DNA from: a virus
Virus record (IMG/VR): IMGVR_UViG_3300027997_000002
DNA: 64,000 nucleotides
Strand: one strand, 5' to 3'
In this document: positions 1,457 through 64,000 of the stretch, piece by piece
Layout of the letters: each line of letters begins with the position of its first letter
Position numbering within the stretch: position 1 is the first letter of the stretch
Notes under the pieces: generated by a model
Database searches by the model: none
Told to the model about the DNA's origin: nothing
The model's input: the letters and a program-made list of their open reading frames with translations, nothing else
Made by a program: the position numbers and the translations under genes

Positions 1457-1692
1457 CCCACCCAGACGACGAAGTCCCTGACGACTTCCGTCCCACCAAC
1501 TTGGAGATGCTGGGCGAGACCTGCTGCCCGGGCTGCGAAGCCCTGACCGCCAAGTTCAAGGAGGTGCTCGAAAAGTTCGTGGAGGCCACCGACGCCGAGA
1601 GGCCGTTCGACAACCTCCAGGAGAAGGCCGACATCATCAAGGAGTTGGGCACGACGTCGCGCTGGCTCCTAGGGGAGGCCACAGATGGCTAG
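1453..1692 (+). CDS. Hypothetical protein with CCPGC motif
   Basis: ATGA overlap, RBS GAGG. Confidence 0.55.
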   Translation: MTHPDDEVPDDFRPTNLEMLGETCCPGCEALTAKFKEVLEKFVEATDAERPFDNLQEKADIIKELGTTSRWLLGEATDG

Positions 1693-3406
1693 CAAGACCT
1701 TCTCCATCCAGCTCGGCAAGGGCGTCCAGCTCGACGCCCGCAAGCTCGTCGACACGCGCATGCTGGTCGTCGGCAACTCGGGCTCCGGCAAGTCCTGGGC
1801 GGTCCGACTCATCGCCGAGCAGGCCGCGCCCAAGATCCAGACCATCATCCTCGACCCCGAGGGCGAGTTCGCCAGCCTGCGCGAGCTGGTCGACGTCCTC
1901 ATCGTGGGGGCCGATGGGGACCTGCAGCCGACCGTGCCGACGGCCGCGAAGCTTGCGCGCGAGTTGCTCAGGCTCGGCGTCTCGGCCGTCATCGATCTCT
2001 ACGAGCTGAAGCTGCAGGATCGCCGCGCGTTTGTCCGGTCGTTCCTCGACAGCCTCATGTCGGCACCCAAGAAGCTTTGGCGTCCCGCGCTCATCATCCT
2101 CGACGAGGCTCACAAGTATTGCCCCGAGCGCAGCAGCGGCCAGGCCGAGTCGACCGAGTCCGTCATCACGCTCCTGAGCCAGGGCCGCAAGCGAGGCTTT
2201 TGCGGCATCTTGGTGACCCAGCGGATCTCCAAGCTCCACAAGGACGCCGCGGCCGAGTGTGTCAACAACCTGATCGGACGGACCATGCTCGACGTCGACG
2301 TTCGCCGGGCCCGGGATGTCCTCGGCCTGGCCAAGAAGGACGAGGGCACCCTGCGCTCGCTCAAGGAGGGCCAGTTCTTCGGCTTCGGCCCCGCGTTCAA
2401 GGGAGCCGAAGGGGTCATCCGGTTCAAGACCGCCGCGGTCGAGACCACTCATCCCGAGGCCGGCGAGCGCCACAAGCTCACGCCGCCGCAGCCCTCGGCC
2501 AAGATCAAGAAGATCTTGCCCGAGCTCGCGGCGCTCCCCCAGGTGGTCGAGCAAGAAGCCAACGACCTGGCCTCGGCTCGCAAGCGCATCCGCGAGCTGG
2601 AGCGCGAGGCGCTTGCGGCCGCTCGCGAGAGTACGAAGGCTCGGAGAGACGGTGCCAACGGCGTCGACGTCCAAACCGCCATCACACGCGCGCTCAAGCT
2701 ACAGCGCAAGCAACTTCAGATGCGCCTCACCACATCGATCAAGCGGGTTACCGGTCTACGGCGAAGTGTCCAGTCACTCGACCGTGCCGCAGAGAACCTC
2801 GAGGATGGTATCCTTGGACTCGTCGATTCCGACACGCCCGAGGCTGCGCTCGGTGCTCCAGCGCCAAAGGCCGTGCGTCCACCTCCTCGTACACCGCGAC
2901 CTCAAGCCCCAGAACCGGACAAACCGCAGTCCGATGCCAGCGTCGGCCGTGGTGGTCTGAGTAGGATGCTCCGCGCACTCGCGCAGAACCCCGACGGCTG
3001 CGAAAGATCGCAGCTCGGGGTCCTGGCCGGCATGAGCTCACGTAGCGGCACGTTCGCTGGCTACCTCTCAACCATGCGCGGCAACGGATGGATGGTCGAC
3101 GAGGGTGGTCTCATGTTCGCGACCGAGGGAGGGGTAGAGGCACTCGGGGACTTCGACCCGTTGCCCACCGGCGACGCTCTCGTCGAGTACTGGCAGGGAC
3201 AGCTCGGGCAAGGAGGGGTTCGTCGGATCTTCGACGCGCTCATCGAGGCTGGTGCGGATGGTCTCAACCGTGACGAGCTCGCGGAGGCCGCCGAGCTCAG
3301 CGCACGGAGCGGCACGTATGCGGGCTATCTCTCCAAGCTGCGCACCTTGAAACTCGCCGCCGGCAGTGACCCGATCCGCCTGGCCAAGACTCTATTGGAG
3401 GCATAG
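1685..3406 (+). CDS. HerA/DUF87-like P-loop ATPase with coiled coil and tandem C-terminal winged helices
   Basis: Walker A GNSGSGKS, Walker B LIILDEAH, SQGRKRG and VTQR motifs of the FtsK-HerA superfamily. Confidence 0.85.
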   Translation: MASKTFSIQLGKGVQLDARKLVDTRMLVVGNSGSGKSWAVRLIAEQAAPKIQTIILDPEGEFASLRELVDVLIVGADGDLQPTVPTAAKLARELLRLGVSAVIDLYELKLQDRRAFVRSFLDSLMSAPKKLWRPALIILDEAHKYCPERSSGQAESTESVITLLSQGRKRGFCGILVTQRISKLHKDAAAECVNNLIGRTMLDVDVRRARDVLGLAKKDEGTLRSLKEGQFFGFGPAFKGAEGVIRFKTAAVETTHPEAGERHKLTPPQPSAKIKKILPELAALPQVVEQEANDLASARKRIRELEREALAAARESTKARRDGANGVDVQTAITRALKLQRKQLQMRLTTSIKRVTGLRRSVQSLDRAAENLEDGILGLVDSDTPEAALGAPAPKAVRPPPRTPRPQAPEPDKPQSDASVGRGGLSRMLRALAQNPDGCERSQLGVLAGMSSRSGTFAGYLSTMRGNGWMVDEGGLMFATEGGVEALGDFDPLPTGDALVEYWQGQLGQGGVRRIFDALIEAGADGLNRDELAEAAELSARSGTYAGYLSKLRTLKLAAGSDPIRLAKTLLEA

Positions 3407-3676: not shown

Positions 3677-3911
3677 CCGCTTTCCAGCACAGGGCAAATG
3701 GGTTGGCAAGCGCGTCAGCGTGTGCTTCCACTACAACACCCACGACCAGGTCGAGGGCACGATCGTGCGCGACGACTCCGAGGACCCGCATTGCACGATC
3801 ATCCGCCTCGACGACGGGCGCCATGTCCTAGCGACCGAGTGCCAGTACGGGCTGAAGGAACAGCACGACCGCGCGGCCACCGTCCGCGAGGAAAAGGCCA
3901 ACTCGCTATGA
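3648..3911 (+). CDS. Small SH3-like phage protein
   Basis: Beta-rich VGKRVSVCFHY...GTIVRDD...IIRLDDGRHVLATECQY. Confidence 0.55.
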   Translation: MGTQQNITRDRFPAQGKWVGKRVSVCFHYNTHDQVEGTIVRDDSEDPHCTIIRLDDGRHVLATECQYGLKEQHDRAATVREEKANSL

Positions 3912-4243
3912 CCGTCACCGTATACGGCCCCAGATTCCACCGCCCCGAGAACTGGCCGACGCCGGCGTCGCCGCCCACGGGGCTCGAAGAGTTTGAGATG
4001 CTGAGGCGTTTCACGGCGCCGCAGCTCCGCAAGATGGGCCTCGCCTACTGGACCAAGGACGGCCCGCGGCCGCTCATGCTGTTCCCGGCGGAGTGGTACG
4101 AGTCCATTCCGGCCGGTTTCGAGTTCGAGGACATCAACGGACACGTCGAAAAGTTCGTGCCCGGCGAAACCGATGACGACCGGCGCATGGGCGCGCTACC
4201 CTACGGGATCCGGGCCAAGGCCGGCCCTAACGTGGAAGCATGA
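3908..4243 (+). CDS. Hypothetical phage protein
   Basis: ATGA overlap; ...DDDRRMGALPYGI. Confidence 0.55.
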   Translation: MTVTVYGPRFHRPENWPTPASPPTGLEEFEMLRRFTAPQLRKMGLAYWTKDGPRPLMLFPAEWYESIPAGFEFEDINGHVEKFVPGETDDDRRMGALPYGIRAKAGPNVEA

Positions 4244-4256
4244 AAGGTTTTCCGCT

Positions 4257-5081
4257 ATGAGATGCCCAGAATGCAACGGTGAAGGTTGGACCACGAGCCT
4301 CGGCAACTGCTGGCAGAAGTGCCGGACCTGCAAGGGCAAGAGGGAACTCGATGTCATCCTCGAGGAACCGAGCCAACTCCCGCCCAAGGACGAGATCGTC
4401 GAGGCGCGTCCGAAGCGTGAGACACCGTTGGTGGTGCGCGATGCATCCGACTACGACCGCGTGGTGTACGACTACGCGATCCGCCGGGTGAAGAAGCCTG
4501 AGCAGGAGAGGGAGGTCGGTACGCGCGAGCTGGTCACCGAGCTGCTCCAGCGCGTGGACCGGCTCGAGAACGAGATCATCGGCCTACGCGCCGGGGGAGG
4601 GGTCGCGCGCAGCGAGTTCGCCGGCAACATCCCCATCCCCGAGCAGAACCATCCCTACGTACTCTCCGAGTCGATTGTGGTGAAGCCGGGGGCGATGTCA
4701 TCGCTCCACCTCACCCCGAACATGTACTCGGAGGAGCACGAGTTGCTAAGCGTGATCGTCACCGCAACGAGCGACATGGACGGAAGGGACATGGCCACCC
4801 AGGGGTTCGTCGAGAAGATCGAAATCATGGGCTGGAGCATCATCTACCAGATGCCCTGCTCAGCGTTTCGGGGCGAGCCCATGCAACCTCAGATAGGGCC
4901 CGGACGCAGCTTGCCCAATGTGAACTACCAGACCGGAATCGGGGTCTGGCTCAAAAACCTCGACAAGCTCCACCCGATCCGATTCGACGCAACCGCGTGG
5001 CTGCGCCGGATCCACCGCATCGAACAACCAACCTCGGGTGACATCGCCCGGCTCAGAGGAGACTGCAACAATGGCCGCTAA
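4257..5081 (+). CDS. Zn-finger + coiled coil + beta-sandwich (jelly-roll-like) protein
   Basis: N-terminal CPECNGEG...CRTCKG; C-terminal ~125 aa of alternating beta strands resembling 40045-40770. Confidence 0.6.
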   Translation: MRCPECNGEGWTTSLGNCWQKCRTCKGKRELDVILEEPSQLPPKDEIVEARPKRETPLVVRDASDYDRVVYDYAIRRVKKPEQEREVGTRELVTELLQRVDRLENEIIGLRAGGGVARSEFAGNIPIPEQNHPYVLSESIVVKPGAMSSLHLTPNMYSEEHELLSVIVTATSDMDGRDMATQGFVEKIEIMGWSIIYQMPCSAFRGEPMQPQIGPGRSLPNVNYQTGIGVWLKNLDKLHPIRFDATAWLRRIHRIEQPTSGDIARLRGDCNNGR

Positions 5082-22518: not shown

Positions 22519-22922
22519 CGACGCACCCTCCGGAACCGGATCGGGGCGTGGAGCGTGTGCTCGATCTCTCCGCGCTCGACGAGATCCCACATGGCCTTGG
22601 TCATGTTTGGACCCGCGACGTCGGCCGTGTAGTCGTACAGCGTGACCGAGATATGGTTGAAGGTCTGGGCGCGGCCGTCGGCAAGGTACGCGAGGATCTC
22701 CACCTCAAAGCCGGCCGTCGGTCGTGCGTGCTGCTTCTTCCACTTGGCGATGACGTAGTCCCCTCGACCTGGGCGAGCCGAGCGCTCGGGGTCCCCCATC
22801 GAGCGGATCATGTGCGTGTAGCCCTCGCGTTGATCCCTCGGGACCGGGTAGCCACTAGCCCAGCCGTCGACGTGCTGGGAGTCGAGCGCTGCGATCTCCG
22901 AGCGTGTGTGGTCTGCTCTCAT
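22515..22922 (-). CDS. Hypothetical protein with C-terminal wHTH-like segment
   Basis: EILAYLADGRAQTF...KAMWDLVERGEIE. Confidence 0.55.
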   Translation of the reverse strand: MRADHTRSEIAALDSQHVDGWASGYPVPRDQREGYTHMIRSMGDPERSARPGRGDYVIAKWKKQHARPTAGFEVEILAYLADGRAQTFNHISVTLYDYTADVAGPNMTKAMWDLVERGEIEHTLHAPIRFRRVRR

Positions 22923-23848
22923 TGCTTGCCTTCCATGATGCTGTTGACGTGATCGCGATAGGTCTCGGCGACGCCCTGGTCGTTTTGAGCGTGGTTGCCC
23001 GCCCGGCCACCGGTGGCGCCCTTGGCCTCCTCAGGCGCCCGCCTGGCGGCGTAGCTCCACGCAAGCGAGTCGGAGCTTGCGATGTACGGAGCGGCGTAGC
23101 GCAGCGCCTGTGCGCCCAGGCCGAACGCGTGGAGCCCGAGCCCGCCCTGGACTCCCGCCAACTCGCGAAGGATCTCGACGGGCTCCCGGACGCTCTTGCG
23201 CCGGCAGATGGAGCCGACGCCCACGCGCTGCATGTCGCCAAGGATGACGCCGGCGTCGCGGTACATCTCGACGTGGTGCATGTAGTCGCCAAGCTCCCAG
23301 CCTTGCAGCACGGGCAACCAGTGGACCTCGGGCGCCATCGCGAAGAGCGTCCGGAAGTTGTCGACCGTGCGGCGCTGGTGCTCGGCGATGGTCAGGCCGG
23401 TAGCACGCAGCGCCGTCTCCTCGCACATCCAGTCCTGGATCGACACCCAGCCGATCGTCCCCAGCTCGCGCTGGTACCTCAGGACCTCGTCGACGAACGC
23501 CTCGGGGCTCACGGTCCAGCGTCCGTGCTGGTGCAGCTCGGTGAATCCTCCGCTGTCGACGTAGACGGGGACCGTGGCCTTGGGGTAGGCGGTGATCCGC
23601 CGGCGGATCTGGCGGATGCTCAAAAACAGGGGGCCCTGGGCGTCCCCGGCGAACGCCCAGTGCGGCCGATGGGTCCCGAGGATGAATCCCTCGTCGGACT
23701 CGTCGAGCCACGGGCACGGTCCCCCCTGGTGCTTGCCCCAGCGGTCGTACCAGAGATCGGGGACCTCGGCGCAGTCGGCCGGGTCGTGGACGAGCCCGTG
23801 CTCGTCCTCGAACGCCTCGATCGCTTCGCGTGTATCGTCGCTATGCAT
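22919..23848 (-). CDS. DpdA-like (TGT-fold) 7-deazaguanine DNA transglycosylase
   Basis: LGTHRPHW, DSGGF, QDWMCE, PVLQGW, VGVGSICRR, LHAFG, SSDSLAWS. Confidence 0.75.
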   Translation of the reverse strand: MHSDDTREAIEAFEDEHGLVHDPADCAEVPDLWYDRWGKHQGGPCPWLDESDEGFILGTHRPHWAFAGDAQGPLFLSIRQIRRRITAYPKATVPVYVDSGGFTELHQHGRWTVSPEAFVDEVLRYQRELGTIGWVSIQDWMCEETALRATGLTIAEHQRRTVDNFRTLFAMAPEVHWLPVLQGWELGDYMHHVEMYRDAGVILGDMQRVGVGSICRRKSVREPVEILRELAGVQGGLGLHAFGLGAQALRYAAPYIASSDSLAWSYAARRAPEEAKGATGGRAGNHAQNDQGVAETYRDHVNSIMEGKQ

Positions 23849-40044: not shown

Positions 40045-40770
40045 ATGCAGAATCTGCAGAGCTACCAGAAGATCCACGCACGCATGAGCGAGCGTGTTTC
40101 AATCCACCGCGAGCTCGGCCAAGGGAACATCATTGGTGTTCACGGCGGTCGACACCTGTACCACGGGCGTACGTTCAACTCCCCCAAGGAGAAGGCAGCG
40201 TACCTCCAGTCGGCCACGCACGCGCGCATGGCCAAAAGTGGTGCCGGCCAGCGCAAGACCGGGCCGGTCGGCGCGGTCGCTCCGGGAAGCGGAAGTCCCG
40301 GTGAGGGTCCCCGTGCGCTCACGGGTCGGTACGATCTACCGCCCCAGGACTGCACGATCCACGGGATCGTGACGATCGGCGACTCGTCGATCGCAATCGG
40401 TGCGGACGGTCAGGTGACCGTTGGCTCCGGCAGCTGTCGCTGCATGACCACGAAGTTCATGCAGGCCGCTGCGTACCGTGCGTCGGACTCGGATGCAACC
40501 AACCTCATCGAGGACTGCTCTCCGTGCCCGGTGCTGCTGGTCAACTCGCGTAGCGGGGTGTTTCCGAACAAGCTCGATATCCTGATTGGTGCTGCGTTCA
40601 CCTTCACGGACATCGATCAGGCGCCGCTCAACTGCGCAAACTGGCACAGCTTCTCGTCGATCACGGGATGCCAGCTCACTTTGGACTGGCGAAACATCAT
40701 CGACGACGGTGCGATCCATGTCCTCATGAAGATGTACGTCATCTGTGAGGGCGGCTGCTGCGACTTCTAG
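40045..40770 (+). CDS. Capsid protein candidate: basic arm + single jelly-roll-like domain
   Basis: ~95-aa basic/Gly arm then ~145 aa of alternating beta strands ending LTLDWRN...IHVLMKMYV; upstream GTG 39967 possible. Confidence 0.5.
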   Translation: MQNLQSYQKIHARMSERVSIHRELGQGNIIGVHGGRHLYHGRTFNSPKEKAAYLQSATHARMAKSGAGQRKTGPVGAVAPGSGSPGEGPRALTGRYDLPPQDCTIHGIVTIGDSSIAIGADGQVTVGSGSCRCMTTKFMQAAAYRASDSDATNLIEDCSPCPVLLVNSRSGVFPNKLDILIGAAFTFTDIDQAPLNCANWHSFSSITGCQLTLDWRNIIDDGAIHVLMKMYVICEGGCCDF

Positions 40771-40822
40771 TCGCATTCTTGCGCACGGGCTCGACGTGGG
40801 TCCGTGCGCATACGGAGTCTCC

Positions 40823-41701
40823 ATGAAGCCAGTCCCCGAAATCTTCCCAGGCGGCGCCAAGCACATGCCGGGCGACCCGCACAGCAAGCTCGGGGTCTCC
40901 AGGCAGTGCGCAAACGGGCAGGCGCGTCTCGTTTTCGCGCAGTACAACGCCGATCCGCTCTCGACTGGCACGTCGTCACCGGTGCCGCCGTTCAAGGTCG
41001 ATCAGATGATCAAGGCGGAGTACGTCGGCGAGGGCGAAAACATCCTGCCGTGGATCGTCAACCTGTGGGCATTCGAGGTCGAGCGCGTCGCCGGACTCGG
41101 CGCGCCGGTGAACCCCCTCGGGCTTTCGGAGATTCGGCGCGGCAGCATCTTCTCGCGCTACAAGGCGCGCGTCGAATGGGGCGGCGGAAACATTCGCGAC
41201 GTAGACTTCGGCCAATCGTTCCGCATTTCGACGCCGTCGCGGTTCATCACGGTGTCGACGTTGCTGCCGCCAAACAATGCGTCGTTCGTCAACCCGGAAC
41301 CCGGGAATCCGAATCAGCCGTCGCTCGCCGGCGTCGTCACCGACACGCTGTTTGGCGTCGAAGTCCAGCCAACGACGTCGCTCGTGGGGCGACCGGGCGC
41401 AACCCATACGCAGACGATCACGATCCCGCAGACCGTTGTCGACCAGTTCATCGCATTGCCGCCCGGCACCCGGAGCGTGTCGATCTATCAGACCGGGGTC
41501 GGTGATCCGATCACCGGTTTTTGGTCGCTCACGAGCACCCCGGCCGCGGTCGCGTTCAATCTCGGCTCCGTTGTCGTCAGCGGAGCCGACCTGCGTGCGC
41601 TCGATCTCATTCGCCCTGGCAATGCGGAGGGCATTGCAACCGGTCCGGCCGACATCGACGACGATCGCGTCATCACCGTTGTCTCTCACCTGGAGATCTG
41701 A
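40823..41701 (+). CDS. Capsid/vertex protein candidate with two beta-sandwich halves
   Basis: 292 aa, nearly all-beta pattern, RBS GGAG. Confidence 0.5.
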   Translation: MKPVPEIFPGGAKHMPGDPHSKLGVSRQCANGQARLVFAQYNADPLSTGTSSPVPPFKVDQMIKAEYVGEGENILPWIVNLWAFEVERVAGLGAPVNPLGLSEIRRGSIFSRYKARVEWGGGNIRDVDFGQSFRISTPSRFITVSTLLPPNNASFVNPEPGNPNQPSLAGVVTDTLFGVEVQPTTSLVGRPGATHTQTITIPQTVVDQFIALPPGTRSVSIYQTGVGDPITGFWSLTSTPAAVAFNLGSVVVSGADLRALDLIRPGNAEGIATGPADIDDDRVITVVSHLEI

Positions 41702-52742: not shown

Positions 52743-53471
52743 ATGCCAAACGGTCTACACGGATTCGAAGACAAACGCATCAACGTCGCCGCATTCACCA
52801 ACTCGATGCGGAGTCTCTACGATCTCGCGCCGAGCATGACCGCGCTGCTGGCGATCCTGGGGGTCCTTGTCGAGCTGACCGGCCGAATCACCGAGCTCCG
52901 GGGACAGATTATGATCCCGGCGCTCAACGAGATGCTCAAGCGCCAATGGGACCCCAGGATGACCGCGCTGCGGGCCGATCTGAACAGCATCATGGAGGAC
53001 GTCGGGACGCATCCCGACGAGTCGGACATTCCGATCTCCGAGCTCCGCGACAACATCGCGGGTGCGCTCCTGTACGGCAAGCACAAGGCCTACTGGGAGC
53101 CGGACCCCTGGATGCGTCAGATGGCGGTCGTGACCTGGGCAGCGAGCATGTGGAACCAACTACTCGAGGTCGCGCGCTTGAACGCGCAGACCATGCGCGA
53201 GTACCCGCCGGGATATATTGTCATTGCGGAGTCCATCATCATGGCCGAAAAGCAGCTCAGCGAGTCGGCGCCTGGGGAAGACCCCACGATACGGGACAAG
53301 ATCAGCGACGGTCTCGATGACATCGCCGACGGGGCCGAGGACCTGTTCAAGGCCATCGCCGCCGCCGCCAAGAAAGTCCTCCCGTACGTCGCACTCGGGA
53401 TAGGTGTCCTGGCGGGCCTCATCATCCTGACGCGAACCAAGCGTGTCAGCATTACCACGAGGGCCAAATGA
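52743..53471 (+). CDS. Helical protein with C-terminal TM anchor
   Basis: VLPYVALGIGVLAGLIIL + RTKR. Confidence 0.65.
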   Translation: MPNGLHGFEDKRINVAAFTNSMRSLYDLAPSMTALLAILGVLVELTGRITELRGQIMIPALNEMLKRQWDPRMTALRADLNSIMEDVGTHPDESDIPISELRDNIAGALLYGKHKAYWEPDPWMRQMAVVTWAASMWNQLLEVARLNAQTMREYPPGYIVIAESIIMAEKQLSESAPGEDPTIRDKISDGLDDIADGAEDLFKAIAAAAKKVLPYVALGIGVLAGLIILTRTKRVSITTRAK

Positions 53472-59986: not shown

Positions 59987-60394
59987 ATGGCCAAAGAAAG
60001 CCGCCTCAGGTGGATCGCTGAGATCGCAGCCGCCAGCGTGATCGGTGCGCTGGCGGTCCGGGCCATGGACAAGTACTTCTCCAAGAAGACCGAGCAACAG
60101 GCGCTGCCCGCCGAGCCTCAGCAAAACCCAGCGATGGTCGCCGGTCAGCAGCCAACGCAGCAGTTCCTGGTCGCGCCGCCGGTTCCACCGCCGGTGCCCA
60201 TGCCGGTACCGTTCCCGGTCTACACCCAGGCTCCGCAAATGATGCAACCTCAGCAACCAAACTTCCCGCAAGTTCCCCAGTTCCCGCGGCTCAACCCGGA
60301 GGAGGAGGAGCCCGAGCTCGAAGAGGTCGTCGAGGAGATCGACCCCGTCGACGAGATCGAGCGGGAGTGGGAGGAGAATGGCTGGGACGCATAA
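59987..60394 (+). CDS. TM + Pro/Gln-rich + acidic tail protein
   Basis: Low-complexity PQ tract, EEEE tail. Confidence 0.6.
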   Translation: MAKESRLRWIAEIAAASVIGALAVRAMDKYFSKKTEQQALPAEPQQNPAMVAGQQPTQQFLVAPPVPPPVPMPVPFPVYTQAPQMMQPQQPNFPQVPQFPRLNPEEEEPELEEVVEEIDPVDEIEREWEENGWDA

Positions 60395-61091
60395 CCCCAC
60401 CGGCTACGTCGCCTCCACGCGCGAGATGGACCTCGACGACGCGCCGCGCTACCTGAACGACGCGGGCAAGCTCGTATGGCTCAACGCCTACGAGTCCGCC
60501 GAGCGGGCCTACGGCGATCTGCGGTGGGCGAAGCCGCACGACGTGGCCGACTACGTGGCCTCGGGGTGGCGCAACATGCCCGCGGCTGGGAAGGGCAAGG
60601 TCGAGCTCCCGTGGCAAGGGGCGACCACCTACCTCGGGACCATGCTCGAGGTCCACTATGCGCTCACCGAGGGCCAGGTGTTCGTGCAGAGCTTCGGCCG
60701 TAGCCCGCCGGCGCTTTTGTGGAGCGCATCGCAAAAGGAGGACCGCGCGGGCGGCTCGGTCTACGCCTACCCGGGCCTCAAGATCCCGACGCCGAGCCTC
60801 AACGCCTACGAGGCCCCAAAGGCGGCGCGGGTCTACACCCAGTGGCGCGACGGCAACGAGCGACCCCGAGGAGCGAGTGAGGTCGACTTCCCGGTGCCGA
60901 ACGTGAGCGCGGCCAAGCCCGCCATTGCGGTCGTGTACCGATCCGACAAGTTCTCGCCCGGCAAGAAGATCGACTACATCCACCACTTCGACAAGGGCGT
61001 GCGCGTACGACTGGGTCCGGGCAAGATTCCGAACGCTGTGTACATCACGGGCGGTCGGCTGCGGCTGACCGAGAGGGGACTCGAGCGCTGA
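60378..61091 (+). CDS. Putative virion core protein
   Basis: THNP start; C-terminal VVYRSDKF...YIHHF...ITGGRLRLTERG. Confidence 0.65.
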   Translation: MAGTHNPTGYVASTREMDLDDAPRYLNDAGKLVWLNAYESAERAYGDLRWAKPHDVADYVASGWRNMPAAGKGKVELPWQGATTYLGTMLEVHYALTEGQVFVQSFGRSPPALLWSASQKEDRAGGSVYAYPGLKIPTPSLNAYEAPKAARVYTQWRDGNERPRGASEVDFPVPNVSAAKPAIAVVYRSDKFSPGKKIDYIHHFDKGVRVRLGPGKIPNAVYITGGRLRLTERGLER

Positions 61092-61783
61092 TGGCCAAGA
61101 AAACAACACTCTCAGCTGCCCAGCGAGCCGCCCTGGCGAAGGGCCGTGCCAAGCTGGCCAAGAGAGGCAAGAAGAAAGCGTCCAAGGAAGGGCCACGGAC
61201 GGCCCTGAAGGACGTCCGATACCGCGGCTACACCATTTTCCCTATCGTCGGCACGACCAGCCCGGGACGTCGCTTCTACGAGGCTGACATTACCAAAGGC
61301 AACACGAGCGTGGACTTCGTGACCGGCTCAACTCGGGCGATCGTGCTTCGCCGAGCTCGTCGCACGATCGACAAATACTTCATCAAAGGCGTTCCTCATC
61401 GGAAGGTCAAGCGAGGGAAGAAAAAGGTCGTCAAAGTCTCCTACGCAACGCGAGCTCGGCTTCTCAAGGCGCGCGGGGGCAAGAAGAACCGCCGTGCCAG
61501 GACGGCCCACCTGGGTGCGGCGGTCGCAACGGCAGTGGCGAACCCGAGCACTCCACGGCGCGCCAAGAAGAAGGGCAAGAAGAACCGATCGGCTCGTCTG
61601 GGCGCAGCAGCCAAGCCGTCGCGCGCGAGACGGCAGCGACCCGGGGAAGGGTTCGCTTACCTGGTCCAGGTCCAGGACTCCAACTCGAAGAAGAGGACCC
61701 GTAAAAATCCCGAGGTCGATACCGGCACCGCAAGCCCAGCTCGCGCGAAGCAGATCGCGGCGGCGTTCCTCAGGAGCGTATGA
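61091..61783 (+). CDS. Highly basic DNA-condensing/core protein with NP motifs
   Basis: LSAAQRAALAKGRAK, K/R-rich, VANP and RKNP, ends IAAAFLRSV. Confidence 0.7.
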   Translation: MAKKTTLSAAQRAALAKGRAKLAKRGKKKASKEGPRTALKDVRYRGYTIFPIVGTTSPGRRFYEADITKGNTSVDFVTGSTRAIVLRRARRTIDKYFIKGVPHRKVKRGKKKVVKVSYATRARLLKARGGKKNRRARTAHLGAAVATAVANPSTPRRAKKKGKKNRSARLGAAAKPSRARRQRPGEGFAYLVQVQDSNSKKRTRKNPEVDTGTASPARAKQIAAAFLRSV

Positions 61784-62485
61784 ATGCCCCAGAAGAAGAA
61801 GAAGCGCCATAGCTATTCGGCCGAGATCTTCTACAGGCGAAAGCGCAGCAAGCCGGGAAAGTTCATCGCGAAGATGTCCCGCGACGCACGCGAGGCCGGG
61901 AAACCGTTCCGAGCGCCGCATCAAACGGTTTCGCGCAGGGGGATGTACGGTCCGCCATTCCACGGTGAGGTTGGGAAGGCGGACGGTGGCATCTTACTCC
62001 TCGACGACCTTCAGGACTGGTCACCCGTAGTCCTCAGGGGCATCCGCGAGTTCATCGAGGACAACGGCCTGACTGTGCGGATTGTTGCGATCGTCGACCT
62101 GGATGCCACCGATGAGATGACCGGCAAGACTAGGACGAACACCCAAGAGAGGCTCAAGAAGATCGAGAAGATCTTCTGGCCCTCATTGGGGCCACCGGAG
62201 GAGGAGAAGACCGCCGCCCCCAAGAAGAAGAAGGTCCCGGTGCTCCCCTGGCCCCGCCGCAGCACGGTCGACATCGAGCGACTCCCGGGCCGCAAGTTCG
62301 GCTCCTGCCTGCGATGTGCAATCTGCATCGCCTACGATGTCAATCGAGGCTGCTGCACCGTATGCGGTCGACCGCTCTCGGCCAACGCCAAGAAGAAGTC
62401 CAAGAACCCGGCCAAGCATAACCCCAAGCACAAGCTCGCGCGCCAGCGCCGTATTGCAAGCTCGTTCCTGCGCAGCATTCGATGA
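61784..62485 (+). CDS. Basic protein containing a ComM/YifB-like AAA+ fragment, Cys cluster and NP motifs
   Basis: PFRAPHQTVS...GEVGKADGGILLLDDL...LRGIREFIEDNG; no Walker A; ends IASSFLRSIR. Confidence 0.7.
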   Translation: MPQKKKKRHSYSAEIFYRRKRSKPGKFIAKMSRDAREAGKPFRAPHQTVSRRGMYGPPFHGEVGKADGGILLLDDLQDWSPVVLRGIREFIEDNGLTVRIVAIVDLDATDEMTGKTRTNTQERLKKIEKIFWPSLGPPEEEKTAAPKKKKVPVLPWPRRSTVDIERLPGRKFGSCLRCAICIAYDVNRGCCTVCGRPLSANAKKKSKNPAKHNPKHKLARQRRIASSFLRSIR

Positions 62486-64000
62486 AGTACCGGTACAAGG
62501 GCTACGAGATCGAGATCCTGCGTCGTGAGACCGGGAGCCACGAGTACGTCCTGAGCAAGAAGGGGCGTCGACTCGAGCGCGCGCACGCGTCAGCCTTCCC
62601 GGGCTACACGGCCGAGCAGGCCCTGGCCGCGGCGAAGCGGCGCGTCGACAAGAAGACGGCCAAGAAGAAGAAGCCCGCGACCCAAAGGCGGCTGCCGAAG
62701 ATGGAGGTCTTCGACGTCGAGGCGGTCGAGCTCGCCATCAAGAAGCTCCCGCTTCGAATGCGGGTGAAGATCTTCCCGGCCGCGCGCAAGCTCGCGGACC
62801 GGCTCGAGCAGCCGCCAGTCATCGTGCGCCGCGAGATGGAGAAGCTCGACCTGGTCGAGCCCATGGGCCAGGGCTTTTGGGGCCTGAGCAAGCTCGGGAC
62901 CCGCTACTACGTCATACACCGCCAAAGGCTGGAGGAGGCCCTGGCCAAGGACCTCGGCTTCGAGCTGGAGAAGAAGCAGAGGCCCAACAAGAAGAAGAAC
63001 CCGATCCGCAAGAAGGGCGTGTTCCCGAAGTACCTCCTTCAGGCCGGCTACGACACGGTGTGGAACTACCGCGGGTGGACCATCGGGATCACCCAGCGCA
63101 GCAACACCGAGTGGGCGTGGAAGGGCAGACACCCAACCCTCAAGGTTGGGCCTATCATGGCCCGTGGGCAGCGCATCATCATGGACAAGCACGCCTACCT
63201 GGGCGAGCTCACGGGTCCGACGGGTGAGACCGAGCAAGACGCGCTTTGGATCGCCAAGTACTGGGTCGACAAGTACGAGTTGTTCTGGGCCATGTGGCAC
63301 AAAAACCGCGACGACGCCGAGAAGCTCATGACGGCGATCGGTATGCTTGAAAACACCGCCGATAAGCTAGTCCTCCGGAAAAAGCTATCGCGAGCCAATC
63401 TTGCGCGAGAGTGGCAGAGGCTCAACCCCAAACAGTCTGGCCTGTCTTCAAAGGGGGCGATCGCTTGGCAGTACTTCGAGACGCTGCCGAGCAAGGAGCG
63501 TCTGGGGATCATGGATGAGGTCAACGAATACACGAAGCGCGCGAGCTGGTGGGAGATCCTGCCCACCGCGGAGCAACGACGTCGTGGGGGCGGGCAGGCC
63601 AACCCCAAGGGCAAGAGACGCCCAAACACGATGCTCACCAAGGAGAAGGCGAAGTATCTGATGCGGTCAGGTGGCCGGCGCGTGTGGCAGTACGGCAAAG
63701 ACTGGGAGTTTCACACGTTCAAGGATTCACCCGTCGAATGGGAGGCGGAGGTCGTCGGTAGCGATCCCCGCAAACCGGGACTCGGACACACGGCCGGCAA
63801 GACCGAGCAGGATGCGCTAGCGACGGCCAAGTACCGAGTCGATCAGGAAGCCTTCCTCCACAAGATCAAGCCTGCGACGAGACGGATGCGGTTACGCGAG
63901 ATCATCATCATCCTCGAGCAGCTGGCCAATGATCGCGCCAGCGCGGACGAGACGCCTCGACGTTCCGATGTAGCACGCGAGCTCCAGACCAGAATGACAG
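62482..64000 (+). CDS. Modular basic protein >506 aa with three beta3-alpha repeats and NP linkers (runs off the window, not in ORF track)
   Basis: Hand translation from ATG 62482 is open to the end; TAEQALAAAKRRVD, TEQDALWIAKYWVD, TEQDALATAKYRVD; KKNP, RLNP, QANP. Confidence 0.8.
   Translation, partial: MKYRYKGYEIEILRRETGSHEYVLSKKGRRLERAHASAFPGYTAEQALAAAKRRVDKKTAKKKKPATQRRLPKMEVFDVEAVELAIKKLPLRMRVKIFPAARKLADRLEQPPVIVRREMEKLDLVEPMGQGFWGLSKLGTRYYVIHRQRLEEALAKDLGFELEKKQRPNKKKNPIRKKGVFPKYLLQAGYDTVWNYRGWTIGITQRSNTEWAWKGRHPTLKVGPIMARGQRIIMDKHAYLGELTGPTGETEQDALWIAKYWVDKYELFWAMWHKNRDDAEKLMTAIGMLENTADKLVLRKKLSRANLAREWQRLNPKQSGLSSKGAIAWQYFETLPSKERLGIMDEVNEYTKRASWWEILPTAEQRRRGGGQANPKGKRRPNTMLTKEKAKYLMRSGGRRVWQYGKDWEFHTFKDSPVEWEAEVVGSDPRKPGLGHTAGKTEQDALATAKYRVDQEAFLHKIKPATRRMRLREIIIILEQLANDRASADETPRRSDVARELQTRMT

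Follow-up and report, generated by a model that had tools for sequence, protein, structure and literature searches.

ComM/YifB proteins, Mg-chelatase-like AAA+ helicases that serve in natural transformation, are present in many bacteria, and it is unclear what they do besides. The comM gene is a common target of disruption by mobile elements. Among AAA+ proteins more widely, degenerate domains serve as partners of active subunits, as in the N-domain of Mg-chelatase subunit D, the clamp-loader delta prime subunit and some ORC subunits. The degenerate AAA+ domain of Mg-chelatase subunit D pairs with the active subunit I and belongs to the same broad Mg-chelatase group as ComM/YifB.

ComM/YifB proteins (PF01078, TIGR00368; structures 8rxd and 8rxt) are about 500 residues long and carry a Lon-like N-domain, a Walker A motif, a hairpin, an NPCPCG..C.C cluster, an arginine finger and an Mg_chelatase_C lid. 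Monomers of ComM come together on and around DNA, ATP forming the bridge from one subunit to the next; its pre-sensor-1 hairpin comprises residues 324-336, its arginine finger is R463 and its residue R316 acts in trans (PMC11612176). Oligomerisation of ComM is reported to require the Lon-like domain, and a Walker A mutant is reported to lose DNA binding (PMC11612176). A second point of reference is the polyvalent proteins that phages and conjugative elements encode (Iyer et al. 2017, PMC5512222), modular proteins in which effector-like heads are attached to common parts for delivery or anchoring; the main text of that paper contains no mention of ComM, YifB, chelatase or AAA+.

Here we describe a gene of an uncultured seawater virus whose product carries a head of about 120 residues, fused to a zinc ribbon and a viral tail, for which ComM/YifB is the nearest family by both sequence and predicted structure. 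The head has in common with ComM/YifB the motifs PFRAPH and GE..A..G and, in form, hhhhD(D/E), whereas it has none of the domains and catalytic elements listed above. Like the degenerate AAA+ subunits, which act as binding or assembly modules, it should not turn over ATP and is still selected. Unlike them, it is smaller and virus-encoded, while they keep a lid, a ring-forming context and a partner in the same genome. As in polyvalent proteins, a constant zinc ribbon and tail carry variable heads, but here there is one head instead of many and delivery with the DNA is putative. The literature that we searched describes no virus-encoded ComM-like pseudo-ATPase and draws no link between ComM/YifB and a phage-encoded inhibitor or polyvalent proteins. 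The dead mini-ComM modules of viruses apparently constitute an undescribed family.

The gene and its genomic setting

The window, which is the whole stretch of 64,000 nucleotides that was analysed, contains the gene complete at positions 61784-62485 of the plus strand, encoding 233 amino acids and a stop codon. Its ATG abuts the stop codon of the upstream gene, with AGGAG 7 nt ahead, and its own stop codon overlaps the next start (ATGA). Two metagenome contigs (L001 and L002) carry an identical gene, homologs with 77-83% identity lie on short contigs (P0002-P0004), and the reading frame is unbroken in five genes from four metagenomic samples; the gene's DNA is also found in seawater metagenome runs. 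From the reading frame, the homologs and a dN/dS below 1, it is well supported that 61784-62485 is a real, expressed-looking viral gene.

The neighbourhood looks viral. The window encodes a HerA/FtsK-type ATPase (DUF87, Zot) at 1685-3406 that matches a PHROG 'terminase large subunit' family, a DpdA at 22919-23848 on the minus strand, a C5 DNA methylase, a RepB-type primase, a UvrD helicase and many ORFs without a family. The window ORFs scanned gave no match to a classical terminase, portal or capsid, and roughly 25 of them, scanned against Pfam, included no integrase. No deposited phage matched positions 60000-64000 by blastn, PHROGs has no family for the protein of 61784-62485, and no relative was found in the viral contigs scanned with this protein (P0001). 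An ESM Atlas search gave a sub-threshold PRD1 spike lead for the ORF at 40745-41698.

The protein is modular and basic (pI 10.4; 53 of its 233 residues are Lys or Arg), with its parts in the order head, linker, zinc ribbon and tail, all encoded on the plus strand. A basic N-terminal leader (residues 1-10; 61784-61813), recognised by its composition and low pLDDT, precedes the mini-ComM pseudo-ATPase head (residues 11-131; 61814-62176), whose limits come from AlphaFold2, VIA-align and the ESM Atlas model. The head is followed by a Pro/Lys/Glu-rich linker that is predicted to be disordered (residues 132-170; 62177-62293; pLDDT 43-61), by a four-Cys zinc ribbon that is common to other proteins (residues 171-200; 62294-62383), and by a basic NP linker (residues 201-213) with a C-terminal tail that is predicted to be helical (residues 214-233; together 62384-62482). 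A first-pass annotation had remarked on K/R-rich flanks with NP motifs and a Cys cluster, and these are all present: NP occurs at residues 208 and 213, and the zinc-ribbon region has six Cys, at 175, 178, 181, 190, 191 and 194. The ribbon's match to DUF6011 (PF19474) is below the gathering cutoff (15.2 bits versus 26.6, E 0.016).

The ribbon is a mobile module, FGxCxRCxVC(L/I)xYDxxxGCCTVCGxPL, that is found on many unrelated N-terminal parts. It is present in P0006-P0011, P0015, P0016, P0020, P0022, P0025, P0027, P0041, P0050 and P0068, and in most cases NP, a basic stretch and a tail come after it.

The tail is common to six consecutive, translationally coupled, K/R-rich genes, whose products share a single motif at the C-terminus, consisting of a basic run, usually KNP, and then (A)RQ(K/R)x(I/V)AxxFL(R/M/A)(S/G)x. 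The set (L001:9308-15407) comprises the genes at 61091, 61784 and 62482 and three more past the window, to about 67190. Its first member is the upstream basic gene of 230 aa (61091-61783, plus strand); the downstream basic gene of 571 aa (plus strand) runs from 62482 to the window's edge at 64000 and, according to L001, to 64197. In the protein of 61784-62485 the tail occupies the final ~20 residues, which are predicted to be helical and end ARQRRIASSFLRSIR. The motif is absent from all other ORFs of the window. The shared tail looks like a sorting or docking peptide. A membrane-targeting role for the tail was considered and rejected, as its hydrophobic moment is not clearly above shuffled sequences, a fraction of 0.04-0.44 of which reach the observed value. 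Elsewhere in the window, the small proteins encoded at 53468, 54032, 57869 and 58775 have N-termini with a basic run and (R/K)NP before a predicted membrane helix, and these NP motifs echo the NP in the linkers of the tail-bearing proteins.

Homology of the head to ComM/YifB

The central part of the head (residues 35-99; 61886-62080, plus strand) matches the Mg_chelatase/ComM profiles, and the roles of its motifs can be read from work on ComM (PMC11612176). Pfam PF01078 (Mg_chelatase) aligns to residues 35-99 with E 2.8e-9 and 37.1 bits, above the cutoff of 20.3, over profile positions 71-138 of 207 only. With the equivalog models the scores are far below the cutoffs: TIGR00368 (YifB) gives E 5.6e-8 and 31.8 bits, below its cutoff of 362.4, and NF007365 gives 21.2 bits, its cutoff being 530. 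Against the Legionella ComM structure 8rxd (E 1.5e-5), residues 40-99 align to ComM residues 265-327. A phmmer search of 1.84 billion representatives returned 137 matches at E <= 1e-3, many of them ComM/YifB-type proteins of ~500 aa aligned at about residues 260-330, and a profile built from the mini-modules reaches PF01078 proteins among 5.8 billion sequences with E down to 1e-18. By these sequence comparisons, the homology of the head to ComM/YifB is far beyond chance. The first-pass annotation had likened a peptide within 61901-62100 (residues 40-106) to the ComM/YifB signature and had proposed a profile search as its check; the peptide, residues 40-95, does follow that signature, and the PF01078 match bears the assignment out.

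A minimal AAA+ core

AlphaFold2, run on an alignment of 48 sequences, predicts the head with pLDDT of about 89-97 over residues 11-130. The predicted elements are, in order, a strand (12-18), a helix (24-38), two strands (42-43 and 70-73), a helix (81-94), a strand (99-105) and a final helix (115-131). By prediction, the model has an ASCE alpha/beta core in which the strands follow the AAA+ order, and only four strands are predicted. Foldseek returned AAA+ domains for this model, and the best VIA-align row is ComM 8rxt_A, with Z 10.5 and an rmsd of 2.9 A over 116 residues at 24% identity; MCM subunits tie with ComM on Z (about 10), but at only 10-17% identity. Model residues 11-136 superpose on ComM starting from residue 211, the strand before the ComM Walker A motif (218-225). 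The ESM Atlas holds a model of its own, in which residues 11-135 align to YifB/ComM clusters with TM 0.67-0.68. A fold search of BFVD found generic AAA ATPases only and no close structural match.

Two independent models therefore agree on residues 11-135 as a predicted AAA+ alpha/beta core that is complete but minimal. Because both fold the whole of 11-135, the sequence match of ~65 residues is the recognisable centre of an entire core, and descent of the head from the ComM/YifB branch is well supported. The first-pass annotation had read the match as a captured fragment embedded in another protein; in both structure models it is instead part of a whole, reduced AAA+ core.

Motifs kept and lost

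Several ComM-specific elements are retained in the head. PFRAPHQ occupies residues 41-47, with PFRAPH at 41-46 corresponding to the RPFRxPHH signature. R43, P45 and H46 are invariant across the 48 sequences, and together with G69 they are invariant in both active ComM and the dead modules; E62 shows no variation in the 48-row set and hardly any when the dead modules are taken by themselves. The ComM-specific signature GE..A..G.L.LD(D/E) is kept, with GE..A..G at residues 61-69, and the Walker B remnant ILLLDD (residues 70-75) keeps its form. Across the mini-modules the Walker B pair is DD, DN, NE, LD, TE, GE or DE. The equivalent of the helix-2 insert is shortened (residues 55-61). R88 aligns with the sensor-3 residue R316 of ComM; its retention is limited to the closest relatives and a few others and does not extend through the family.

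Other elements of ComM have been lost. A pattern search for Walker A (GxxxxGK[ST]) found none in the protein or its close homologs. The position of the lost P-loop, at the junction of strand 1 and helix 1 (residues 19-27; 61838-61864, plus strand), reads RKRSKPGKF and varies among homologs, its Lys being Glu in P0004. Helix 3 runs directly into strand 4 (RIVAIVD), leaving no pre-sensor-1 hairpin, and the NPCPCG..C.C zinc cluster (sensor-1/CPC) is absent from the head. Nothing resembling the arginine finger or lid of ComM follows residue ~135, no PF13335 match was obtained, and the helix at 115-131 leads into the disordered linker, not a helical lid. Only 10 residues precede strand 1, leaving no N-terminal Lon-like domain, and Pfam gives no match there. 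The absence of a P-loop upstream and of an arginine-finger region downstream, both noted at first pass, thus holds in full.

With its P-loop, hairpin, CPC cluster, arginine finger, lid and Lon-like domain lost, the head is therefore a pseudo-ATPase. It is homologous to ComM/YifB at the domain level and fails most features of a working member; from its sequence and models, it should neither bind nor hydrolyse ATP.

Relatives of the mini-module

About a dozen relatives of the head lie on other uncultured virus-like contigs, with or without a zinc ribbon. The sequence searches revealed three kinds of ComM derivative in addition to normal ComM. The P-loop-less mini-modules, which we call type (a) and which include the window's own (P0001-P0006, P0012, P0013, P0015, P0018, P0053 and P0094), are grouped by a strand 1 without P-loop, P(F/L)RxPH, GE..A..G.L.L, a strand 4 directly after helix 3 and a length of ~120 aa, and the window's module has all of these features. 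P0005, P0006, P0012, P0013, P0015, P0018, P0053 and P0094 are only 22-32% identical to it, with R43, P45, H46, G69 and L71 kept. A six-frame HMM search of the window, L001 and L002 found no other copy of the module. The proteins of type (b) combine a Lon-like domain with a dead, shortened AAA+ core (P0021, P0046 and P0108), and those of type (c) keep Walker A and are without Lon-like domain, hairpin or lid (P0143, P0145 and P0183).

In a tree of 76 columns, in which many forks are unresolved, the 13 type (a) modules fall on one side of one branch (89/82; 88% of bootstrap trees). P0021 and P0046 pair elsewhere in the tree, and P0108 stands apart on a long branch. Walker A seems to have been lost more than once, separately in the ComM derivatives that bear a Lon-like domain. 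The depth and diversity of the P-loop-less group on its side of the branch argue against a recent capture from a host comM; the window's head belongs to an old viral lineage and is not a fresh capture.

Two of the other relatives have distinctive surroundings. P0021 (L004:811-1989), which has no Walker A, adjoins RadC, a tyrosine integrase and a helicase, and in principle it would be better suited than the window's protein to act as a dominant-negative ComM; P0046 and P0108 resemble it. P0143 (L011:10001-10675, 224 aa) is encoded on a phage-like contig, with a Mom homolog two genes downstream.

Selection and divergence at the locus

Purifying selection acts unevenly along the protein. The pooled dN/dS is 0.06 in the zinc ribbon, the most constrained part, 0.34 in the ComM-like centre and 0.88 at residues 11-39, so that selection on the head is moderate (about 0.3-0.9 by segment). 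In the linker at 132-170 the value differs from pair to pair, ranging from 0.1 to 1.0. Conservation is highest in the zinc ribbon and the tail, and variability is greatest in the loop that corresponds to the helix-2 insert. We conclude firmly that the head cannot work as an ATPase yet is maintained.

A syntenic contig of a related virus (L003) allows the locus to be compared gene by gene. Identity is 47-85% for the 15 genes that precede the tail set. In the set itself it is 37% for the gene at 61091, 33% for the target gene and 46-58% for the downstream orthologs. The target gene is the most diverged at the syntenic locus, and its L003 counterpart (P0005) has another module subtype and an extra domain in the same slot. 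The pattern is that of a fast-evolving, swappable head. In P0002 (L009:57-1160), two mini-ComM modules of different subtypes stand in tandem before a single ribbon and tail.

A candidate mimic of a ComM subunit

We tentatively favour a reading in which the head is a non-catalytic mimic of a ComM subunit that interferes with a putative host ring of the ComM/YifB type, and we regard it as possible while well short of probable. The head, having no nucleotide site, would present the face that carries the trans-acting sensor-3 arginine (R88), dock on an ATP-bound ComM protomer and thereby stop ring growth; it may just as well occupy the surface, whichever it is, that the ComM signature serves. DNA affinity and placement would come from the zinc ribbon, the basic linkers and the tail, and host recombination or transformation-type DNA processing would be blunted during infection. 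What suggests delivery with the DNA, a further element of the first-pass annotation, is only the gene's position and a C-terminal tail common to its neighbours, and such delivery stays putative.

The mimic is favoured because ComM-specific residues persist after catalysis is gone, because ComM assembles from monomers on DNA and the closest relatives keep trans-acting residues, because the locus evolves like a conflict gene (33% versus 47-85%, with two subtypes in one slot), and because mobile elements are known to knock out comM. The separate loss of Walker A in Lon-bearing derivatives, one of them in an integrase/RadC element, is consistent with a conflict role. On the other side, the Lon-like domain that ComM is reported to require for oligomerisation is absent, as is the lid; R88 is not family-wide; the pore-loop equivalent varies, and no part is more variable than the loop corresponding to the DNA-contacting helix-2 insert; the head is under no more than moderate selection; the invariant residues could be plain fold determinants; and relatives in three other lineages lie beside or near genes of base-modification type. 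A complex prediction for the ComM AAA+ domain (residues 190-505) with the mini-module gave 0.27 versus a mark of 0.32, in a run without controls, a score that speaks neither for nor against binding. Reuse of the head as a DNA-binding module, working in the manner of ComM, is weakened by the reported loss of DNA binding in the Walker A mutant of ComM.

A more general form of this proposal is that ATP-blind ComM mimics of uncultured marine viruses, mounted on a carrier of ribbon plus tail, poison the host ComM/YifB ring as it assembles on DNA; we consider it unlikely. If true, it would be the protein-level counterpart of the insertional comM knock-out by mobile elements, and ComM/YifB would matter during viral infection. 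The outcome, loss of ComM, would be the same under the favoured mimicry as when integrating elements disrupt comM; there, however, DNA is inserted into a host gene, and here a protein would act in trans. The existence of a dead, selected, fast-evolving copy suggests either that rings of the ComM type are worth interfering with in infection or that the ComM core can bind independently of ATP, and either idea lends itself directly to the ComM assays already available. The family would also be a clear addition to the few viral pseudo-enzymes that stem from host DNA motors.

Alternative roles

Two alternatives are serious rivals. One, rather doubtful, is that the protein is a structural, DNA-associated ('core-like') component, one of six basic proteins that share a C-terminal sorting or docking tail and would be incorporated alongside the viral DNA or organise it, in which the head is a folded spacer or oligomerisation block without a target of its own. 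Its composition (pI 10.4, 53 Lys or Arg in 233), its place among six consecutive coupled basic genes with a common tail, the target gene's place at the end of a run of same-strand genes, many of them for single-pass membrane proteins, and the conservation of zinc ribbon and tail above the rest of the protein would all suit such a component. However, virion incorporation is putative only, and L005 and L007 carry a comparable tail on enzymes (Prim-Pol, DNA ligase), so that a protein with the tail is not necessarily structural. Shuffled controls are not clearly exceeded by the tails in amphipathic character. An inert spacer, moreover, would not be expected to keep ComM-specific residues when the modules are only 22-32% identical to that of the window.

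The gene content near several relatives points in another direction, namely to an accessory of viral DNA modification or replication: a non-catalytic adaptor that, for example, holds viral enzymes on DNA and inhibits nothing in the host. P0012 is followed after a 3-nt gap by a protein with a PAPS-reductase domain (L014), P0006 comes three genes after a Prim-Pol and overlaps a DUF5591/tRNA-guanine-transglycosylase-like gene (L005), the short P-loop-bearing ComM-like ATPase P0143 is two genes from Mom (L011), and the virus of the window has genes of its own for DpdA and a C5 methylase. These are three informative contexts only, however, and the target gene is about 36-38 kb from DpdA and the methylase, inside the basic tail-bearing block. 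Adjacency does not show partnership because early counter-defence genes cluster anyway, and the fast divergence at the locus would be unusual for the accessory of a core enzyme. We hold this adaptor role, the other serious rival, to be improbable.

That the head is a functionless relic, a decaying piece of comM left for instance as the scar of an integration, is very improbable: the relaxed selection at residues 11-39 (dN/dS 0.88) and the frequent insertion of mobile elements into comM would fit it, but the frame is intact in five genes from four samples, the core has a dN/dS of 0.34, about a dozen deep relatives share the same reduced architecture, the fold is predicted with confidence by AlphaFold2, the similarity exists at the protein level only and inside a longer selected ORF, and the roughly 25 ORFs scanned include no integrase. 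An att-site or comM-insertion scar as such is rejected in view of the intact selected ORF, the deep relatives and the lack of an integrase among the scanned ORFs. Mimicry of a defence AAA+ protein such as BrxL was also considered and is unsupported: PADLOC, which holds defence and not anti-defence models, gave no match at E <= 0.1 for P0001 and chance-level matches for its relatives, nothing that was meaningful.

C-terminal tags on related contigs

On two mini-ComM-bearing, uncultured virus-like contigs (L005:1765-13121 and L007), most proteins end in ...(NP)xxLKRRLLR. Ends of this type are found on a Prim-Pol, an HTH protein, a TGT-like protein and a DNA ligase; in L007 the genes that carry them end at 2151, 3602 and 10199, with a further one on the minus strand at 3839-4831. 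The Arg codons of LKRRLLR often double as the GGAGG for the next, ATGA-coupled gene. The peptide is also kept with other codons and where no gene follows, and it is therefore selected at the protein level. The LKRRLLR ending is a near proteome-wide C-terminal tag in L005 and L007.
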